From: Eledone cirrhosa
Lineage: Eukaryota
NCBI GenBank assembly: GCA_964016885.1
Contig: OZ024741.1
Location: 141,422,001-141,486,000 of the forward strand
Direction: 5' to 3'
DNA length: 64,000 bases
The notes below the pieces were generated by a model. The model was not told the origin of the DNA. It was given only the letters and a program-made list of their open reading frames with translations, and searched no databases. Positions 15,057 to 58,218 of the stretch are shown piece by piece (the first letter of the stretch is position 1; the number at the start of each line of letters is the position of its first letter). A program made the translations under genes and the position numbers.

Positions 15057-15765
15057 TAATGTGTGGTGATAGTCAAGTTTACAATTTTCAACTGTAATGA
15101 GATGGGTAAATTTTGTGCCTTATATAACAGTGAAAAGTGGCTCCAGAATGCTAAATCTAGCAAATTGTATTTTGACCAATCGGTGTGTAGTTTCACTGGA
15201 TTACTAATGCTGATTGGTTTAGGCGTCACGGTTGGTTGACTAACGACTACTAATTGACCCTATCCAACGCATCAATTGTTTTGCTATTTTTAGAAATGAT
15301 GAAAATAGCATCACCATCAACATCACTTTTATTATTATTATTATTATTATTATTGTTGTTGTTGTTGTTGTTGTTAGTGGTCGTAGTCATAGTCATAGTA
15401 GGAGACCCCATTATTATTGTTTTTTTAGCTTGGGTTTGAATTTATCAATAAAATTATTTTCTTTGATTTTTCTCTTGATTTCACTTGGGCTGTGTAATTT
15501 GTAGAATGGGAATATTATAAATATTCCGTGACCACATGTTGCTAGATGGTTACTTAGGGGTATCTGACGGACATTTGCGTCTCTGATTTGCTGTCGGTGT
15601 ACCCGTGCACGTTCCGATAGTGCATTTCCAGTTTGATCGACATATAGTTCTTCACAATTCGGGCATTTAATGCAGTAAATTAGATTTCTGCTTTTGCAGT
15701 TCATATTTGCATTTGGGAATATTTTTCCAGTTTTTGTTTTCATATATTGACCGGTGTGTATGGAT

Positions 15766-18700
15766 CGAAATGGCTCTCTCTAACAGCACCCATACTCCCT
15801 CGTAAATACCTAATTACAGAAATTGCAGGAGAACCAGAAGAAGAAATAAAACTCCGATGGAAACTTACATTGACAAAATTCAGGACCGACATCTCCATTT
15901 CTCAATGTAAACAATCCCGCTACAAAGCCACATATGAAGCTATCGATGACCAAATTGAAGTTGAAATTTCAAAGCTAACGACTGGTATTATAGCTGAAAA
16001 ACTACGAGAACTATGGATCAGAGATATCTCAAAAGAAGAAAACAAATCAAGAAAGGTATTGCAGCAGAAACAATTATTTCTCGACGAATATGCTGCAATT
16101 ATGGTTAAGACTCTGGAACCCTGAGAAAAAGCATTAAAAGTGGACAATCTCACCAACACAACATACGCCAGAACACGTGCCAACACAAACACTCACCTTA
16201 CCTTGAATCAAAGAAGAACTACGGTAATAACTCTTCGCTTTTTCTACAAAAACACCCTAACGCACACAACATGAACAAAAAGCACAAACACAATAGATAT
16301 TCCCCTAAGTAACCATGAGAAGTAGTAAAACCAGGAGATCACTCTCAAGATCTCAACAGAGATTACCCACAAGAAACTGGGCGAAAAAATGATCTAAACC
16401 TGAAAGCAAACCTAGGTCATTTCCCCAGATTGTTAAAAATAATGCTAACAAGAAATGGAAAAATAATATACATAATACCAAAAATAGGACAAAATACATA
16501 ACGAAACCAAATATATCACGACCAAAAGTTCATCAAGCAAACACCAACAGGAATATAAATCCTGAACAGAGAAAAATCCATTTTTTAACGTCAGGACAAC
16601 AAAAACCGAAAAAAGAAAAACTCCAGGAGGAAACCTACCCAAAACAACTGTACACGCAGATCCTAAAATAATTAATTTATCCAAAAGAGATCTTGACACT
16701 GATGAAATGCAAATTCTGTCAAAAGGACTGAAATTCACACCGACTCCAACAGTCAACCACCAAGAACTGAAGGAGGATACCCAAGAATTCTGTCGAAAAT
16801 TACGTCTTATAGAATTCTTCGCTGATAAAAGTAATGAGAGTGATGAATCACTAGTAAAGAATAAATCAAATTTCACTCCACCAAAAGGAAGAAATATCTA
16901 TCTCGACCAATACATTGACATCCTGTCTAAATTTCCTGTTAGACGTAATACTAATGTCAGGCCAAACATTAACAAATCAGAAATGTCTGCACTTAAACGT
17001 ATATAAAATGATAAAAAAAGAATAATTTAACAAGCAGATAAAGGGGGTGCAGTTGTTATAATGGATGCTGAATACTACAGGGATTTGGTTGAGGAACAAC
17101 TGAAAGACACAACATTCTATCATGAAATACCGTCAAATATATTACCACAACATCATGAAGAAGATCAACAACCTGTCTTCAAAATACCACAACTCACTTA
17201 CTGATAAGGAAAGAGACTACATCACCAATTTTGAGCCAAAATACAGCAACCTGTATGGCCTACCGAAAGTTCATAAGTCAAAAGAAATACAACTGGCAGT
17301 AAGAGAACAAAACAGTGAGTACATTAAATTACTACACCCAAAAGACTTAAAACTTAGACCTATTATAGCTGGTCCAACATGCCCCACCCACCGTCTAAGC
17401 AATTTTGTTGACATTATTTTGAAACCACTATGTATTCACATACCCAGTTTCATCCGGGATGATATTGACTTCTTGTCCCATCTTCCCAAAACCATAGAAA
17501 CGAATTCACTTTTACTTAGTTTTGATGTGGTAAGCCTTTACACCAACATTACACATGATTTAGGAATAAAGGCGGTTAAATACTGGGTGGAAAAACATAG
17601 AGAAGTGATTCCCATCAGATTCACAGCGCCATTTATATTAGACGCAGTTAAACTTATTCTGGAAAACAACACTTTTTTCTTCAATGGAAAGAATTACATC
17701 CAAATTAGAGGCACAGCGATGGGAACGAAGTTTGCTCCCGTTTACGCGAACTCTGTAATGGGATACTTAGAACAATAACTCTACCAAGAAATAGAGGAAA
17801 AATATAGTACTGACTTTAGAAAGTACATTGAAAAATCTTGGAAGAGATACCTTGACGACTGTTTCATCATCTGAACAGAATCTCTAGATACTCTGGATGA
17901 GTTCAATATTGTCCTGAATAACCTACACCCATCTCTCCAATTCACAAAAGAGGTGAGTAGTACCAAATTACCATTCCTAGATATAATGATAATCAAAAAC
18001 GACACCACCAATACCACGGATATATATTATAAACACACAGACACCCATCAATATCTGAATTTTAAGTCGTGCCATCCACCTCATACAAAACGCAACATCC
18101 CATACTGCCTAGCCAGAAGAATTTGTACCATTGTAGAAGATACGAATACCAGGTACAAACGCCTAACAGAACTAAGAGAATTTTTGCTCAAACAAAAATA
18201 CCCATCTCTACTTATGGAAAATGGCATACAGCGGGCTATAAACATACCTATACAACAACTTAGGACAACCCAAGGAAGAAGAAACCAAGAACTGGTCATA
18301 CCATTTATAATGACACACAACCCATGTCACCAGAATATCTTCAACACTGCCAAAGCAAACCTACCGATCATTGCTCAAAGTAATGAATTAACAGGTTTAA
18401 TCACAGATCGATCTTTGACACTTAGTAAAAGACAGCCGAAAAATTTGAAGCAATTACTAACAAAAGCAAAGTTTGACCTTAACAACAAAGACCAATCATT
18501 CACTGTATCTAAATGCAATGATAGTCAATGCGGCACATGTCAATCCATACACGCCGGTCAATATATGAAAACAAAAACTGGAAAAATATTCCCAAATGCA
18601 AATATGAACTGCAATAGCAGAAATCTAATTTACTGCATTAAATGCCCGAATTGTGAAGAACTATATGTCGATCAAACTGGAAATGCACTATCGGAACGTG

Positions 18701-18894
18701 CACGGGTACACCGACAGCAAATCAGAGACGCAAATGTCCGTCAGATACCCCTAAGTAACCATCTAGCAACATGTGGTCAGGGAATATTTATAATATTCCC
18801 ATTCTACAAATTACACAGCCCAAGTGAAATCAAGAGAAAAATCAAAGAAAATAATGTTATTGATACATTCAAACCCAAGCTAAATGAACAATAA
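15766..18894 (+). pseudogene. PLE polyprotein (N-terminal region, RT, GIY-YIG) with stops and frameshifts
   Basis: INLS..LSKGLKFTPTP, ADKGGAVVIMD, LYGLPKVHK, LRPIIAG, FDVVSLYTNI, GTAMGTKFAPVYAN, WKRYLDD, LPFLD, YYKHTDTHQYL, CGTC, NLIYCIKCPNC..YVDQTG. Confidence 0.92.
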
Positions 18895-19253
18895 TAATGG
18901 GGTCTCCTACTATGACTATGACTACGACCACTAACAACAACAACAACAATAATAATAATAATAATAAAAGTGATGTTGATGGTGATGATTACTAGAAAAT
19001 GCTATTTTCATCATTTCTAAAAATAGCAAAACAATTGATTCTTTGGATAGGGTCAATTAGTAGTCGTTAGTCAACCAACCGTGACGCCTAAACCAATCAG
19101 CATTAGTAATCCAGTGAAACTACACACCGATTGGTCAAAATACAATTTGCTAGATTTAGTATTCTGGAGCCACTTTTCACTGTTATATAAGGCACAAAAT
19201 TTACCCATCTCATTACAGTTGAAAATTGTAAACTTGACTATCACCACACATTA

Positions 19254-19292
19254 TGAACCTGAAGATTGCGAAAGCATGAAAGTACTTGTTCA
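19254..19292 (+). ncRNA. Minimal type I hammerhead ribozyme (family B right arm)
   Basis: tgaac CTGAAGA ttgcgaaagcat GAAA gtac TT gttca. Confidence 0.78.
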
Positions 19293-19954
19293 ATCAACAC
19301 TTAACATTTAATATTCTACCATACTATTTCATTCTAATACCATTATAAATTTTAAAGGATTGTAAATAAAACGAGTAAATCAGACAAAGCTGGAATTCCT
19401 TTTATATATAATGTGTGTGTGTGTATTTATATATATATATATATATATATGTATTTATATATATCTATTTATATATATCTATTTATATATATATTCAGGT
19501 TCGATGTTCACCACTGGATAGAGCTGGTCAATTCCGTATGGTCAATTTTGTTTGCCTATATTTGACCGGTAGTAGTTGTTAAGATACGGGTCCCTTACAA
19601 TAAAAATTTGTTCGCGACATTCATGGCCTGACTGTAATACCGACCTTTCCTCCTCTTTCTTTCTGTCTTTCTTCTTATAGCTGACATTAACCCTGGCTTC
19701 TCTTCTTCTTCCTTCCCCCTTCTTCTCTCTTCTTTCTCTCTTTCTTTTTTCTTGTGGCATGATATTAACTCTAACTTATGTTCCTCTCCCTTTCTATTTT
19801 CCTTTATTTGACCGGTAGTAGCACCCTGTAAGCTTTAGCCACGTCACTCGAGGGCGACCGGCAAAGGTAGAAGATGCTGGATGGCGGTTGCCCTCGGGTC
19901 TTTCATTTTCAGCCCCATGTATTTTATCTATTACATTCACTTATTATATTTCGA

Positions 19955-48283: not shown

Positions 48284-48975
48284 TAGAGCAAACATCACGG
48301 GCGCTCTATCTCAAAATTATTTTTGAAGAGCATTAGAAATGCGCAACTGGTAAAACTTAAAACCAAAACTGAATACTAACCAATGTTATTACTAATTTTT
48401 ACTTATTCCTAATTAAACTATTTTTCACTGGGAACAATTTGACAGAATTTTCTTTTCCTTTTACCAATATATATATATATATATACAGATGTGAGAAAAA
48501 CCACAGACGCTCCATCTCAACTCTACTTTTAAAAAGCGGAAAACTGCGAAACCGGTAGAGGAACCAAATAAATATATATATTTTTTTTAAAATAAGACTC
48601 CAGTTGCATTTTCGATTTCATCTTTTTTTCTTTATACTTTCACTCGTGTAGGACACCTCGGTTATTTTTCATTTTGTAAAAAAAACCTCACTTTCTAATA
48701 TATATATATATATATTGGTAAACGGAATAGAAAATGGTGACAAATCAGAGCAAACAACACGGACACTATATCTCAAAATTATTTTTGAAAAGCATTTAGA
48801 AATGCGCAGCCGGTAAAGACTTAAAAACTTAAAACCACAACTGAATACTAACCCATACAATTACTAATACTCTTTTATTCCTAATTAAACTATTTTTCCA
48901 CTGTGAACAATTTGTCAGCATTTTCTATTCCGTTTACCAATATATAATAACTTGTGTGTTACACCTCTATTCTTT

Positions 48976-48980
<5 letters not shown>
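48284..48980 (+). mobile_element. Cluster of three short TA-separated elements; 48716-48980 has 30-bp inverted arms plus a tail
   Basis: 48284-48470 resembles 48747-48940; ttggtaaacggaatagaaaatg / cattttctattccgtttaccaa. Confidence 0.65.
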
Positions 48981-49050
<70 letters not shown>

Positions 49051-49051
49051 G

Positions 49052-49163
<112 letters not shown>

Positions 49164-49227
49164 TGTATATATATATGTATATATATATATATACGTATAT
49201 ATGTATATATATATGTATATATATATA

Positions 49228-52200
49228 TAGTAGAATAATCAAGTATCGAAAAATCGGCGCACGAGTTCACGATAAACAAAATTCGAGATGAGCGGCAGAG
49301 GGCTCCATAATTCAAATAAATCAGAGCTATAACTATCGTTAAAATACCGTCACACGTAGAATATGTCTACAATCAACCAAAACGACCGAAAAATTGCGAT
49401 ATGGAAGATTCGGGACACTCAGATAAATTATCAATAAATCAATAAATCAAATGAATGTAAAAAACATACCCGGACCCACTAGAGAGATGGTATATCTAGC
49501 TTCTTGGGTTTCTGTAAATCCTTAAACCGTCCTCTATCAGCTCACATAAAAATATAAGACTTACAGACGACGGGGGACTGGAGTTACTTCTTCAACGAGC
49601 TTTAGTCCGAACGAATGAAAAGACAAAAACCCAGGCTGAAAATACGCAGATGGATTTCAGCAAGGGAGATAACATTTATATCCGCAAAAAAGATTCGGGA
49701 AAATGTGGAATAACACATATCGAATAAGATTGCTCAATAGACATGTTGAAATAAACAGGAGCTATTCATCATTCAATAGAATCGACAAAAAATGAACAAT
49801 AAAATTAACTGGTCAATAGCTAGGTCTAGAGCTAAATATAGTAGAATAATCGAGTATCGAAAAATCGGCGCACGAGTTCACGATAAACGAAATTCGAGAT
49901 GAGCGGCAGAGGGCTCCATAATTTAAATAAATCAGAGCTATAACTATCGTTAAAATACCGTCACTCGTAGAATATGTCTACAATCAAACAAACCGACCGA
50001 AAAATTGCGATATGGAAGATTCGGGACACTCAGATAAATTATCAATAAATCAAATGAATGTAAAAAGCATACCCGGACCCACTAGAGAGATGGTATATCT
50101 ATCTTCTTGGGTTTCTGTAAATCCTTAAACCGTCCTCTATCAGCTCACATAAAAATATAAGACTTACAGACGACGGGGGACTGGAGCTACTTCTTCAACG
50201 AGCTTTAGTCCGAACGAATGAAAAGACAAAAACCCAGGGTGAAAATACGCACATGGATTTCAGCAAGGGAGATAACCTTTATATCCGCAAAAAATATTCG
50301 GGAAAATGTGGAATAACACATATCGAATAAGATTGCTCAATAGACATGTTAAAATAAACAGGAGCTATTCATCATTCAATAGAATCGACAAAAAATGAAC
50401 AATAAAATTAACTGGTCAATAGCTAGGTCTAGAGCTAAATATAGTAGAATAATCGAGTATCGAAAAATCGGAGCACGAGTTCACGATAAACGAAATTCGA
50501 GATGAGCGGCAGAGGGCTCCATAATTTAAATAAATCAGAGCTATAACTATCGTTAAAATACCGTCACTCGTAGAATGTCTACAATCAACCAAAACGACCG
50601 AAAAATTGCGATATGGAAGTTTCGGGACACTCAGATAAATTATCAATAAATCAATAAATCAAACGAATGTAAAAAGCATACCCGGACCCACTAGAGAGAT
50701 GGTATATCTAGCTTCTTGGGTTTCTGTAAATCCTTAAACCGTCCTCTATCAGCTCACATAAAAATATAAGACTTACAGACGACGGGGGACTGGAGTTACT
50801 TCTTCAACGAGCTTTAGTCCGAACGAATGAAAAGACAAAAACCCAGGCTGAAAATACGCACATGGATTTCAGCAAGGGAGATAACCTCTATATCCGCAAA
50901 AAATATTCGGGAAAATGTGGAATAACACATATCGAATAAGAGTGCTCAATAGACATGTTAAAATAAACAGGAGCTATTCATCATTCAATAGAATCGACAA
51001 AAAATGAACAATAAAATTAACTGGTCAATAGCTAGGTCTAGAGCTAAATATAGTAGAATAATCGAGTATAGAAAAATCGGCGCACGAGTTCACGATAAAC
51101 AAAATTCGAGATGAGCGGCAGAGGGCTCCATAATTTAAATAAATCAGAGCTATAACTATCGTTAAAATACCGTCACACGTAGAATATGTCTACAATCAAA
51201 CAAAACGACCGAAAAATTGCGATATGGAAGATTCGGGACACTCAGATAAATTATCAATAAATCAATAAATCAAATGAATGTAAAAAGCATACCCGGACCC
51301 ACTAGAGAGATGGTATATCTATCTTCTTGGGTTTCTGTAAATCCTTAAACCGTCCTCTATCAGCTCACATAAAAATATAAGACTTACAGACGACGGGGGA
51401 CTGGAGTTACTTCTTCAACGAGCCTTAGTCCGAACGAATGAAAAGACAAAAACCCAGGCTGAAAATACGCACATGGATTTCAGCAAGGGAGATAACCATT
51501 ATATCCGCAAAAAATATTTGGGAAAATGTGGAATAACACATATCGAATAAGAGTGCTCAATAGACATGTTAAAATAAACAGGAGCTATTCATCATTCAAT
51601 AGAATCGACAAAAAATGAACAATAAAATTAACTGGTCAATAGCTAGGTCTAGAGCTAAATATAGTAGAATAATCGAGTATCGTAAAATCGGAGCACGAGT
51701 TCACGATAAACAAAATTCGAGATGAGCGGCAGAGGGCACCATAATTTAAATAAATCAGAGCTATAACTATCGTTAAAATACCGTCACACGTAGAATATGT
51801 CTACAATCAACCAAAACGACCGAAAAATTGCGATATGGAAGTTTCGGGACACTCAGATAAATTATCAATAAATCAATAAATCAAATGAATGTAAAAAGCA
51901 TACCCGGACCCACTAGAGAGATGGTATATCTATCTTCTTGGGTTTCTGTAAATCCTTAAACCGTCCTCTATCAGCTCACATAAAAATATAAGACTTACAG
52001 ACGACGGGGGACTGGAGTTACTTCTTCAACGAGCTTTAGTCCGAACGAATGAAAAGACAAAAACCCAGGCTGAAAATACGCACATGGATTTCAGCAAGGG
52101 AGATAACCTTTATATCCGCAAAAAATTTTCGGGAAAATGTGGAATAACACATATCGAATAAGAGTGCTCAATAGACATGTTAAAATAAACAGGAGCTATT

Positions 52201-52966
52201 CATCATTCAATAGAATCGACAAAAAATGAACAATAAAATTAACTGGTCAATAGCTAGGTCTAGAGCTAAATATAGTAGAATAATCGAGTATCGAAAAATC
52301 GGCGCACGAGTTCACGATAAACAAAATTCGAGATGAGCGGCAGAGGGCTCCATAATTTAAATAAATCAGAGCTATAACTATCGTTAAAATACCGTCACTC
52401 GTAGAATATGTCTACAATCAACCAAAACGACCGAAAAATTGCGATATGGAAGTTTCGGGACACCCAGATAAATTATCAATAAATCAATAAATCAAATGAA
52501 TGTAAAAAGCATACCCGGACCCACTAGAGAGATGGTATATCTAGCTTCTTGGGTTTCTGTAAATCCTTAAACCGTCCTCTATCAGCTCACATAAAAATAT
52601 AAGACTTACAGACGACGGGGGACTGGAGTTACTTCTTCAACGAGCTTTAGTCCGAACGAATGAAAAGACCAAAACCCAGGCTGAAAATACGCACATGGTT
52701 TTCTGCAAGGGAGATAACCTCTATATCCGCAAAAAATATTCGGGAAAATGTGGAATAACACATATCGAATAAGAGTGCTCAATAGACATGTTAAAATAAA
52801 CAGGAGCTATTCATCATTTAATAGAATCGACAAAAAATGAACAATAAAATTAACTGGTCAATAGCTAGGTCTAAATATAGTAGAATAATCGAGTATCGAA
52901 AAATCGGCGCACGAGTTCACGATAAACAAAATTCGAGATGAGCGGCAGAGGGCTCCATAATTCAAA
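49228..52966 (-). repeat. Tandem array of about 610-bp units (6 full + 1 partial), each with a hammerhead-like motif; retrozyme-like
   Basis: tagaataatc recurs at 49231, 49842, 50445, 51054, 51665, 52276 and 52881; (TA)n on both flanks. Confidence 0.92.
49468..49600 (-). ncRNA. Variant type I hammerhead (UUGAAGA core), repeated in each unit
   Basis: gctcg TTGAAGA a-gtaactcc..ccgtc...gacgg..ggatttac-a GAAA ccca...tggg TC cgggt. Confidence 0.62.
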
Positions 52967-52968
52967 TA

Positions 52969-53013
<45 letters not shown>

Positions 53014-53037
53014 GTATATATATATGTATATATATAT

Positions 53038-53990
53038 GGAATAGAATGAAACGAAATTTCATTTCTCACTCTTACTATGGCACTTACTTAAATGTAAGTA
53101 TGTATGTATACGTACATACATATATGTATACATACGTACAGTAGTATGTATATATATACACACATGCACACATATATATATATGCACGTATCGGTTTACC
53201 GAACATTTATTATAATGCTCGGTCTGTTTGTTTGTAAACAAACAAACAGCCCGAATTACGCCGTACAGTGTTTAGGCAACCACGTCACCTTTTTTGTTCA
53301 AGACTGACACAGGAACGATGTACTAGTTTCAAGCTTATTAGCTATCGTCAGCATCGTATACCTTCCTGCCAGATGGTTGAATGTCTGAAAGTATATACTT
53401 TCCCGATGCATATTAACGGCTGAGCAGCCTAATTTGCATATCGAGTGAGTTCAGTCGGCCGGGCACAACGAAAACGATAAATGGAAAAGAATGAAACGAA
53501 ATTTCATTTCTCACTCATAGTACGGCACTTACTTAAATGTAAGTATGTATGTATACGTACATACATATATGTATACAGACGTACAGTAGTATGTATATAT
53601 ATACACACATGCAAAACATATATATATGCACGTATCGGTTTACCGAACATTTATTATAATGCTCGGTTTGTTTGTTTGTAAACAAACAAACAGTTCAATC
53701 GGCCGGGCACACCGTTAATATGCTTAAGGAAGGTATACGATGCTGACGATAGCTAATAAACTTAAAACTAGTACATCGTCCCTGTGTCAGTGTTGAACAA
53801 AAGGTGACGTGGTTGCCTAAACACTCTACGGCGTAATTCGGGCTGTTTGTTTGTTTGTTTACAAACAAACAAACCGAGCATTAGAATAAATGTTCGGTAA
53901 ACCGATACGTGCATATATAGATATATGTGTGCTGTGTGTATATATATACATACTACTGTACGTCTGTATACATATATGTATGTACGTATA
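53038..53990. mobile_element. Non-coding HHR element: partial tandem (about 445-bp period) plus inverted arm
   Basis: 53038-53248 repeats at 53482-53693; about 53727-53990 is the reverse complement of 53107-53367. Confidence 0.8.
53316..53356 (-). ncRNA. Minimal type I hammerhead ribozyme
   Basis: cgatg CTGACGA t-agct aata agct-t GAAA ctag TA catcg. Confidence 0.82.

Positions 53991-57507: not shown

Positions 57508-58218
<711 letters not shown>

Follow-up and report, generated by a model that had tools for sequence, protein, structure and literature searches.

The array and its units

We analysed a 64,000-nt window of the Eledone cirrhosa genome (contig OZ024741.1, positions 141,422,001 to 141,486,000), in which a tandem array of units of about 610 bp, each with a ribozyme motif, occupies positions 49230-52971 and is probably a single insertion of a retrozyme without long terminal repeats (non-LTR retrozyme). 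Six full units, starting at 49230, 49841, 50444, 51053, 51664 and 52275 (611, 603, 609, 611, 611 and 605 bp), are followed by a partial unit of ~90 bp (52880-52971), all head-to-tail, without LTRs and inserted in (TA)n. The units showed 96.7-98.4% identity to unit 3, and no further copy was found elsewhere in the window. The array contains no protein coding, its longest stop-to-stop frame being 80 codons. An earlier reading, made from the window sequence before any search (hereafter, the sequence-only reading), had described six full non-coding units and a partial one, inserted as a block in (TA)n, with a minus-strand type I hammerhead in each; coordinates, flanks, reading frames and motif parts agree with that description. 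The features of the locus are as follows.

48980-49229, no strand: (TA)n target, left flank
49225-49247, minus strand: fixed end, on the RNA 3' side, with (TA)n joined to GTAGAATAATC; putative start of reverse transcription
49230-52971, minus strand: probable retrozyme insertion, six full units and a ~90-bp partial unit; strand from the hammerhead and the end polarity, the predicted RNA being the minus strand
49461-49609, minus strand: hammerhead motif of unit 1, predicted cut 49473/49472; 5' strand of stem I 49596-49600, core UUGAAGA 49589-49595, helix II 49513-49588, GAAA 49509-49512, then stem III, and stem I 3' strand 49468-49472
49604-49608, minus strand: predicted pseudoknot 5' strand GGACU, unit 1
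49575-49579, minus strand: predicted 3' strand of the pseudoknot (AGUCC), within the helix II internal loop of unit 1
49740-49870, minus strand: unit positions 511-611 and 1-30, the best-conserved stretch of the unit (0.4-1.6% variation)
50064-50212, minus strand: hammerhead motif of unit 2, predicted cut 50076/50075
50673-50821, minus strand: hammerhead motif of unit 3, predicted cut 50685/50684
51284-51432, minus strand: hammerhead motif of unit 4, predicted cut 51296/51295
51895-52043, minus strand: hammerhead motif of unit 5, predicted cut 51907/51906
52506-52654, minus strand: hammerhead motif of unit 6, predicted cut 52518/52517
52966-53037, no strand: right-flank (TA)n target; the variable end, on the RNA 5' side, is resolved at a microhomology (ATAT)

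A variant type I hammerhead motif in every unit

All six full units carry, on the minus strand, one type I hammerhead motif with a variant core, comprising stem I (GCUCG/CGGGU), UUGAAGA, a helix II of ~78 nt, GAAA, stem III (ACCCA/UGGGU) and a GUC site. The type I layout was present, with three helices around the core and helix I open, as were U4 G5 A6, A9, G12 A13 A14, A15.1-U16.1 and H17. The canonical C3-G8 pair was absent, and U3-A8 or U3-G8 occurred instead; the motif is thus a variant and not a canonical hammerhead. The sequence-only reading had noted a C3U change in the core; U3 is real, but it is half of a U3-A8 or U3-G8 pair and not a lone mutation. A descriptor search found no ribozyme on the plus strand, and the conserved CUGAUAG in helix II was rejected as a second core, since this sequence pairs within that helix and has no matching stem.

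Rfam returned 43 matches at E ≤ 1 between 48500 and 53800, none of them to hammerhead families. As the sequence-only reading had anticipated for strict searches, Rfam and canonical descriptors miss the motif because of its variant core, long helices and predicted pseudoknot, and published counts of animal retrozymes are therefore likely to be underestimates.

A dispersed superfamily

A DNA search of the 3.0-Gb genome gave 2,391 candidate matches to the unit. The combination of (TA)n and the first 19 unit bases had 1,210 exact matches genome-wide, compared with none for the control, and unit bases 1-18 had 1,924. Related families of ~577 and ~622 bp are about 60-65% identical to the window family over aligned parts, and a young branch of 615 bp, whose start had 770 pattern matches in the genome, is 80% identical to it. 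Searched with a pattern covering the motif's 3' half, the genome gave 7,166 matches, versus 2,054 for the control pattern, and the superfamily exceeds background by about 5,000 motif copies. In a phylogeny, 84 copies formed a ladder-like tree, as expected of a single replicating lineage. Most copies of these families are single-armed; rare two-armed (inverted) insertions occur in the window family and in the 622-bp family (L206, G000:C28:82652000-82659000; L095).

We then collected 193 distinct motifs from all fetched loci with a search expression that fixed the remaining core and left positions 3, 8, 17 and N7 free. Positions 3-8 were U-A in 112 motifs, U-G in 79 and another combination in two, N7 varied freely (A/C/G/U, 36/35/56/66), C17 was kept in 189 and an A preceded GAAA in 191. 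The motif is above chance, because across these copies 3-8 stays U-A or U-G and C17 is kept while N7 is free. Copies gathered by BLAST, which were not selected by the motif, likewise had a near-invariant core, with variation at N7 and position 8 (5' core positions conserved in 78-79 of 79, GAAA in 86-89 of 87-89 and C17 in 96 of 98). The sister families have U3-A8 almost throughout, indicating that A8 is likely ancestral. G8, found in the window, spans many successive subfamilies, returns to A in one subfamily among the most derived and recurs in the 615-bp branch. On the tree, position 8 switches between A and G at least three times. No description of a natural U3-G8 core was found in the open-access literature.

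Helix II measures ~80 nt across copies. In an alignment of 24 diverse copies, 87.7% of cells paired and 11 of 39 pairs had changed on both sides, with a covariation score of 0.207 versus 0.154 for shuffled and 0.05-0.093 for slid alignments; 94.7% of cells paired in 48 closer copies.

The internal loop of helix II likely pairs with the 5' flank as a pseudoknot, in which a strand 6-9 nt upstream of the core is predicted to pair with a loop about 8-12 nt into the helix. The candidate pairs are GGACU/AGUCC in the window and UGGACA/UGUCCA, GGAA/UUCC, UCGAACUG/UAGUUCGG and GAGCAA/UUGUUC in relatives, and these predicted helices of 4-9 bp covary. Their mean score was 12.4, compared with 8.6 for shuffled letters (maximum 9.1 in 200 shuffles). 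Sister-family 5' strands paired worse on the window-family loop (7.9 and 7.3 versus 14.1 and 12.1), in a comparison whose family assignment was drawn from the same letters as the pairing; the reverse swap was uninformative because G-U pairs were allowed. The hammerhead fold was the predicted minimum in the 577-bp family and in the 615-bp branch.

Insertion ends

One end of the insertions is fixed. It lay at unit position 1 in all 22 other independent loci found by DNA search, and at position 1-2 in 27 of 29 loci picked via internal patterns, the two exceptions starting at position 70 and at a gap. Ends were also mapped for a set of 91 insertions that includes 90 loci from the first 100 listed on contig C1; these loci are no evidence for the fixed end, because they were selected by it. 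AAATATA|GTAG is the sequence at the unit's internal junction, where a TATATA target can pair with UAUAU in the RNA, and at the fixed end in the window the target and this internal junction share a 5-nt microhomology (ATATA). Priming may thus occur by TA/UAUA microhomology. The fixed start is flanked by two predicted hairpins within the most conserved part of the unit, which is likely a recognition region for the reverse transcriptase (RT).

The other end is variable, and 31 of the 91 insertions finished at unit positions 201-243, the predicted cut falling after 243. End density there was 8.4 per 1000 nt at risk, versus 1.5 before and 1.65 after, an excess with a rate ratio of 4.6 after a microhomology term (p = 7 × 10−10). 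Thirteen ends lay at position 230, eight at 231-242 and one at 244-268. The excess was seen in the first, second and third pass around the unit (22/73, 6/18 and 2/2 of the insertions reaching the region). In the 622-bp family, 6 of 20 later-pass ends lay at 217-237, with the cut predicted after 234, in a sample that favours long copies, and one copy of the 615-bp branch (L277) ends exactly at the predicted cut. The anatomy of both ends fits target-primed reverse transcription of the minus strand. Together with the dispersed copies and the stem covariation, these ends support the retrozyme assignment of the sequence-only reading.

Clonal arrays and their later history

Adjacent units of one insertion share a subfamily haplotype and carry ~1% private changes; only 11 differences in 12,906 nt fell at sites with both alleles elsewhere, one of them recurring twice. 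Four long arrays of the 615-bp branch, in which the motif occurs 16, at least 16, at least 7 and at least 13 times, have an identical majority sequence with 0-2 private changes. The very young members of this branch (L271-L277, L368 and L381) include arrays of 15 or more identical units, and the branch is likely still active.

For 40 further 615-bp loci, taken in the order of the C1 list after skipping seven earlier ones (20 fetched at 9.9 kb and 20 at 3 kb), array length increased with youth (Spearman 0.63, n = 40, lengths counted up to 4.5), the longest being the youngest. Two or more units were present in 7 of 7 loci with at least 99% identity to the youngest haplotype, as compared with 4 of 24 below 97%. 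Seven of the 21 multi-unit 615-bp arrays had variants shared by all their units yet absent from 46 other loci (in L381, one private change in all 15 units), and only two variants were common to a subset of units. The array-wide private variants are consistent with a single monomer having been copied repeatedly.

The window array is older and mosaic (2.0% pairwise), with four-gamete incompatibility in 16 of 28 informative site pairs. Its common variants are absent or nearly so from 170 outside unit pieces, and this, together with the incompatible site pairs, indicates that it was reshuffled by recombination after insertion. The same near-absence argues against a master locus, the array being no detectable source of other copies. 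We also found an array of ~65 units and 40 kb of the window family (G000:C1:81709000-81749000, L188-L190), likewise mosaic, with 42 common changes among the 37 units sampled and stem III changes of the hammerhead spread to 10 and 16 of them.

Candidate enzymes

Elements with RT and GIY-YIG domains are abundant in the genome (10,596 GIY-YIG candidates), which includes open reading frames (ORFs) with both domains, and the Hydra-type protein gave 59,438 candidates, many with long open frames. According to the accessible parts of published accounts, Hydra, Neptune and Naiad elements favour (TA)n (PMC8557442), and an internal RT start and cutting of an AT-rich target have been shown for a Penelope-like element (PLE) (PMC11167929). 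Among 80 PLE loci compared (50 GIY-YIG and 30 Hydra-type), a small share of the PLEs in the genome, none had DNA in common with the unit, homology of the unit to a pseudo-LTR (pLTR) or the common 3' terminus that the sequence-only reading had proposed to look for. A covariance model of the motif gave one weak match in these loci (20.5 bits, L163). PLE fragments near superfamily copies had mixed orientations, in the number expected from their density. The unit is not an autonomous PLE itself, as it has no ORF with RT and GIY-YIG and no sampled copy runs into a common ORF. With no PLE partner found, assignment to a Penelope-type enzyme rests on insertion anatomy.

A young Hydra-type PLE family (L341-L364, 98-99% identical, 2,085 candidates) carries in its 3' untranslated region (UTR) a motif with CUGAAGA, an A-A slot, a helix II of ~90 nt and a palindromic helix III; it has a C3-G8 core and no obvious stem I beside the core, and its similarity to the window motif is a lead only. 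The window itself holds a broken PLE at 15400-19400, with similarity in RT and GIY-YIG to Neptune-type ORFs of the genome, an inverted truncated arm and, in its 3' UTR, a minimal hammerhead-like motif with U-U at the base of helix II; the element ends at (TA)n. A fragment on the minus strand at 644-1042 has weak RT similarity.

Comparison with known elements

The comparisons that follow draw on the accessible parts of the cited sources. Like the window family, metazoan non-LTR retrozymes (PMC7229834; 10.64898/2026.07.22.740005) are head-to-tail non-coding repeats with a type I hammerhead per unit, occur dispersed as monomers to multimers, have low GC and coexist with PLEs. Published units measure 51-972 bp (10.64898/2026.07.22.740005) or 170-400 nt (PMC7229834); the description of the ~610-bp unit as unusually long was therefore overstated, although it exceeds the narrower range, and what is unusual in the window element is its ribozyme architecture, not its unit length. 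The window family differs in its U3-A8 or U3-G8 core, helix II of ~80 nt, long helix III and predicted pseudoknot, in being known from DNA alone and in having no pLTR homology in our comparison, whereas such homology was reported for 24 of 57 Xenopus retrozyme families (10.64898/2026.07.22.740005). Insertion-end maps and clonal arrays do not appear in the accessible parts of those accounts, and no description of octopus or cephalopod retrozymes was found in the open-access literature.

The hammerheads in the pLTRs of PLEs, including the U3-A8 variant of Schistosoma Cercyon (PMC4209133) and those of the Hydra clade (PMC8557442), share U3-A8, an extra base after A9 and a pair resembling G10.1-C11.1 behind the mismatch slot; some Hydra motifs have an extra base on both sides (PMC8557442, file S2). 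They are minimal, with a helix II of about 3-8 bp and a short palindromic helix III, unlike the window family with its long helices II and III, N-A slot and G8 opposite U3. U3-A8, U-U at 10.1-11.1 and pseudoknots have each been published in active ribozymes (PMC3088659, PMC4209133, PMC7229834). In contrast to the pseudoknotted hammerheads of Perreault et al. 2011 (PMC3088659), the partner in the window family would be an internal loop located 8-12 nt inside a long helix II, the pseudoknot is predicted, and the host is a high-copy animal retroelement. The Poseidon PLE of Anolis (Frangieh et al. 2024, PMC11167929) resembles the window family in its internal RT start, AT-rich target, partial-tandem insertions and 5' truncation; it differs in being autonomous, with two start sites and without target homology, whereas the window family has no ORF, a single start site and a 5-nt target microhomology.

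Origin of the array

The marks of a retrozyme that can be read from DNA were all found, namely tandem non-coding units, a hammerhead in each and dispersed copies. We consider it probable that the array is one non-LTR retrozyme insertion, formed when a monomer RNA, as a ligated or nicked circle, was copied, likely repeatedly, by a Penelope-type RT. Retrozyme life cycles have been proposed (PMC7229834, PMC4209133), the final copying step not being shown in the accessible parts of those sources. Transcription across a multi-unit copy, followed by self-cleavage, would release a monomer of ~610 nt, with the ribozyme fold keeping its two ends together. The (TA)n target would then be nicked by a PLE protein, whose RT would start from the internal UAUA and travel round the monomer. 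Where the monomer was still unligated, about a third of passes in the window-family branch would end with the RT dropping off at the nick, giving this branch its copies of 0.4 and 1.4 units; a ligated circle would let the RT continue, yielding clonal arrays of 10 kb with scattered ends. Arrays would later shorten or be reshuffled by recombination, and unequal recombination may account for the mosaic units in the window.

A bolder form of this reading, which we put forward tentatively and at somewhat less than even odds, is that the superfamily has an undescribed hammerhead architecture, combining the 80-nt helix II, the internal-loop pseudoknot, the N-A slot and a core that alternates between U3-A8 and an active U3-G8 wobble, and that its insertions record rolling-circle reverse transcription in which a monomer was copied 16 or more times, the arrays later shrinking by recombination. 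The cDNA would then reach 10 kb or more, and array length would be set by whether the circle was ligated or still carried the nick left by the ribozyme.

Several observations weigh against a self-cleaving, circular intermediate copied by a PLE. The core in the window combines a U3-G8 wobble with an A-A mismatch at 10.1-11.1, and cleavage may be slowed by either. With the pseudoknot ignored, the hammerhead fold of three window units lay 0.8-4.2 kcal/mol above the minimum and made up less than 1% of the ensemble, and the covariation statistics ignore the relatedness of the copies. The 201-243 region was picked after the data had been seen, 13 of its 31 ends lie at a single base (230), where RT stalling at the foot of stem I would explain them too, and the excess was weak in the 615-bp branch (5/35). 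Target duplications were not above chance (7/47; shuffles, mean 3.7, maximum 10), including a possible 23-nt one at the right flank of the window array; one, of 16 bp, was convincing (L097). Nor was there an A-to-G strand bias (p = 0.74) that would independently prove an RNA stage: A>G and U>C changes (30 versus 61) matched the expectation from composition, and one of 10 array-wide private variants was A>G. Two of the four long 615-bp arrays abut assembly gaps, and their identity could partly be an assembly effect. To these are added the lack of DNA common to the unit and the PLEs compared, the failure to cleave of eight of nine Xenopus retrozymes tested (10.64898/2026.07.22.740005, in the part accessible) and, in the accessible account of Poseidon, PLE insertion in vitro that was unaffected by hammerhead mutations (PMC11167929).

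The template could instead be a linear, partly cleaved multimer copied by the same PLE machinery, with no circle and with long arrays maintained by expansion at the DNA level. A cut 5' end would explain the pile-up of ends at every pass, and DNA-level turnover is real, as seen in the incompatible site pairs of the window array and the 42 common changes of the ~65-unit array. On a multimer, however, unit-specific differences should pass to daughter insertions, and only one such pair recurred; moreover, the array-wide private variants in a third of the young arrays (7/21) call for a monomer stage during insertion or immediately before it, and slow expansion predicts the opposite of the longest arrays being the youngest. 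We regard this explanation as unlikely.

It is less probable still that the hammerhead, at least in the U3-G8 branch, is a non-cutting relic or structural element at which the RT stalls, in a plain PLE-dependent non-autonomous repeat. The non-canonical core, a fold that is not the minimum, the cluster of 13 ends where the stem I extension has its foot (position 230) and the independence of PLE insertion in vitro from the hammerhead would suit a relic. Against this, positions 3, 8 and 17 keep catalytic rules across ~60%-identical families while N7 is free, G8 persisted across a long succession of subfamilies, with A as the only base to which it reverted, and the stronger stems II and III just beyond show no comparable pile-up.

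Conserved 5'-TC and 3'-CTRR termini are traits of Helitrons, and a non-autonomous DNA rolling-circle (Helitron-type) element or mobile minisatellite, with clonal arrays made from circular DNA, would likewise have a single fixed end opposite a variable one, arrays of clonal tandem units and A/T targets, but such termini were not found, termini differ among related families, and a strand-specific hammerhead under pairing constraint and ends stopping at the cut would be left unexplained, which makes this origin very improbable.

The probable retrozyme family in the window thus offers a defined RT start and target, end statistics linked to the cut, and very young clonal arrays, which make the unshown copying step directly testable. 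Its ribozyme widens the hammerhead consensus, and the natural A8/G8 pair offers a way to gauge how much catalysis is required by an element of this kind.

Neighbouring elements

To the left of the array, positions 48718-48950 hold a dispersed inverted-repeat element, and to its right, 53040-53800 hold a duplicated element of ~440 bp, also dispersed. A perfect tandem repeat of 215 bp (57608-58218; 2.8 copies, 100% identity), bounded by (TA)n tracts, could be another very young insertion.

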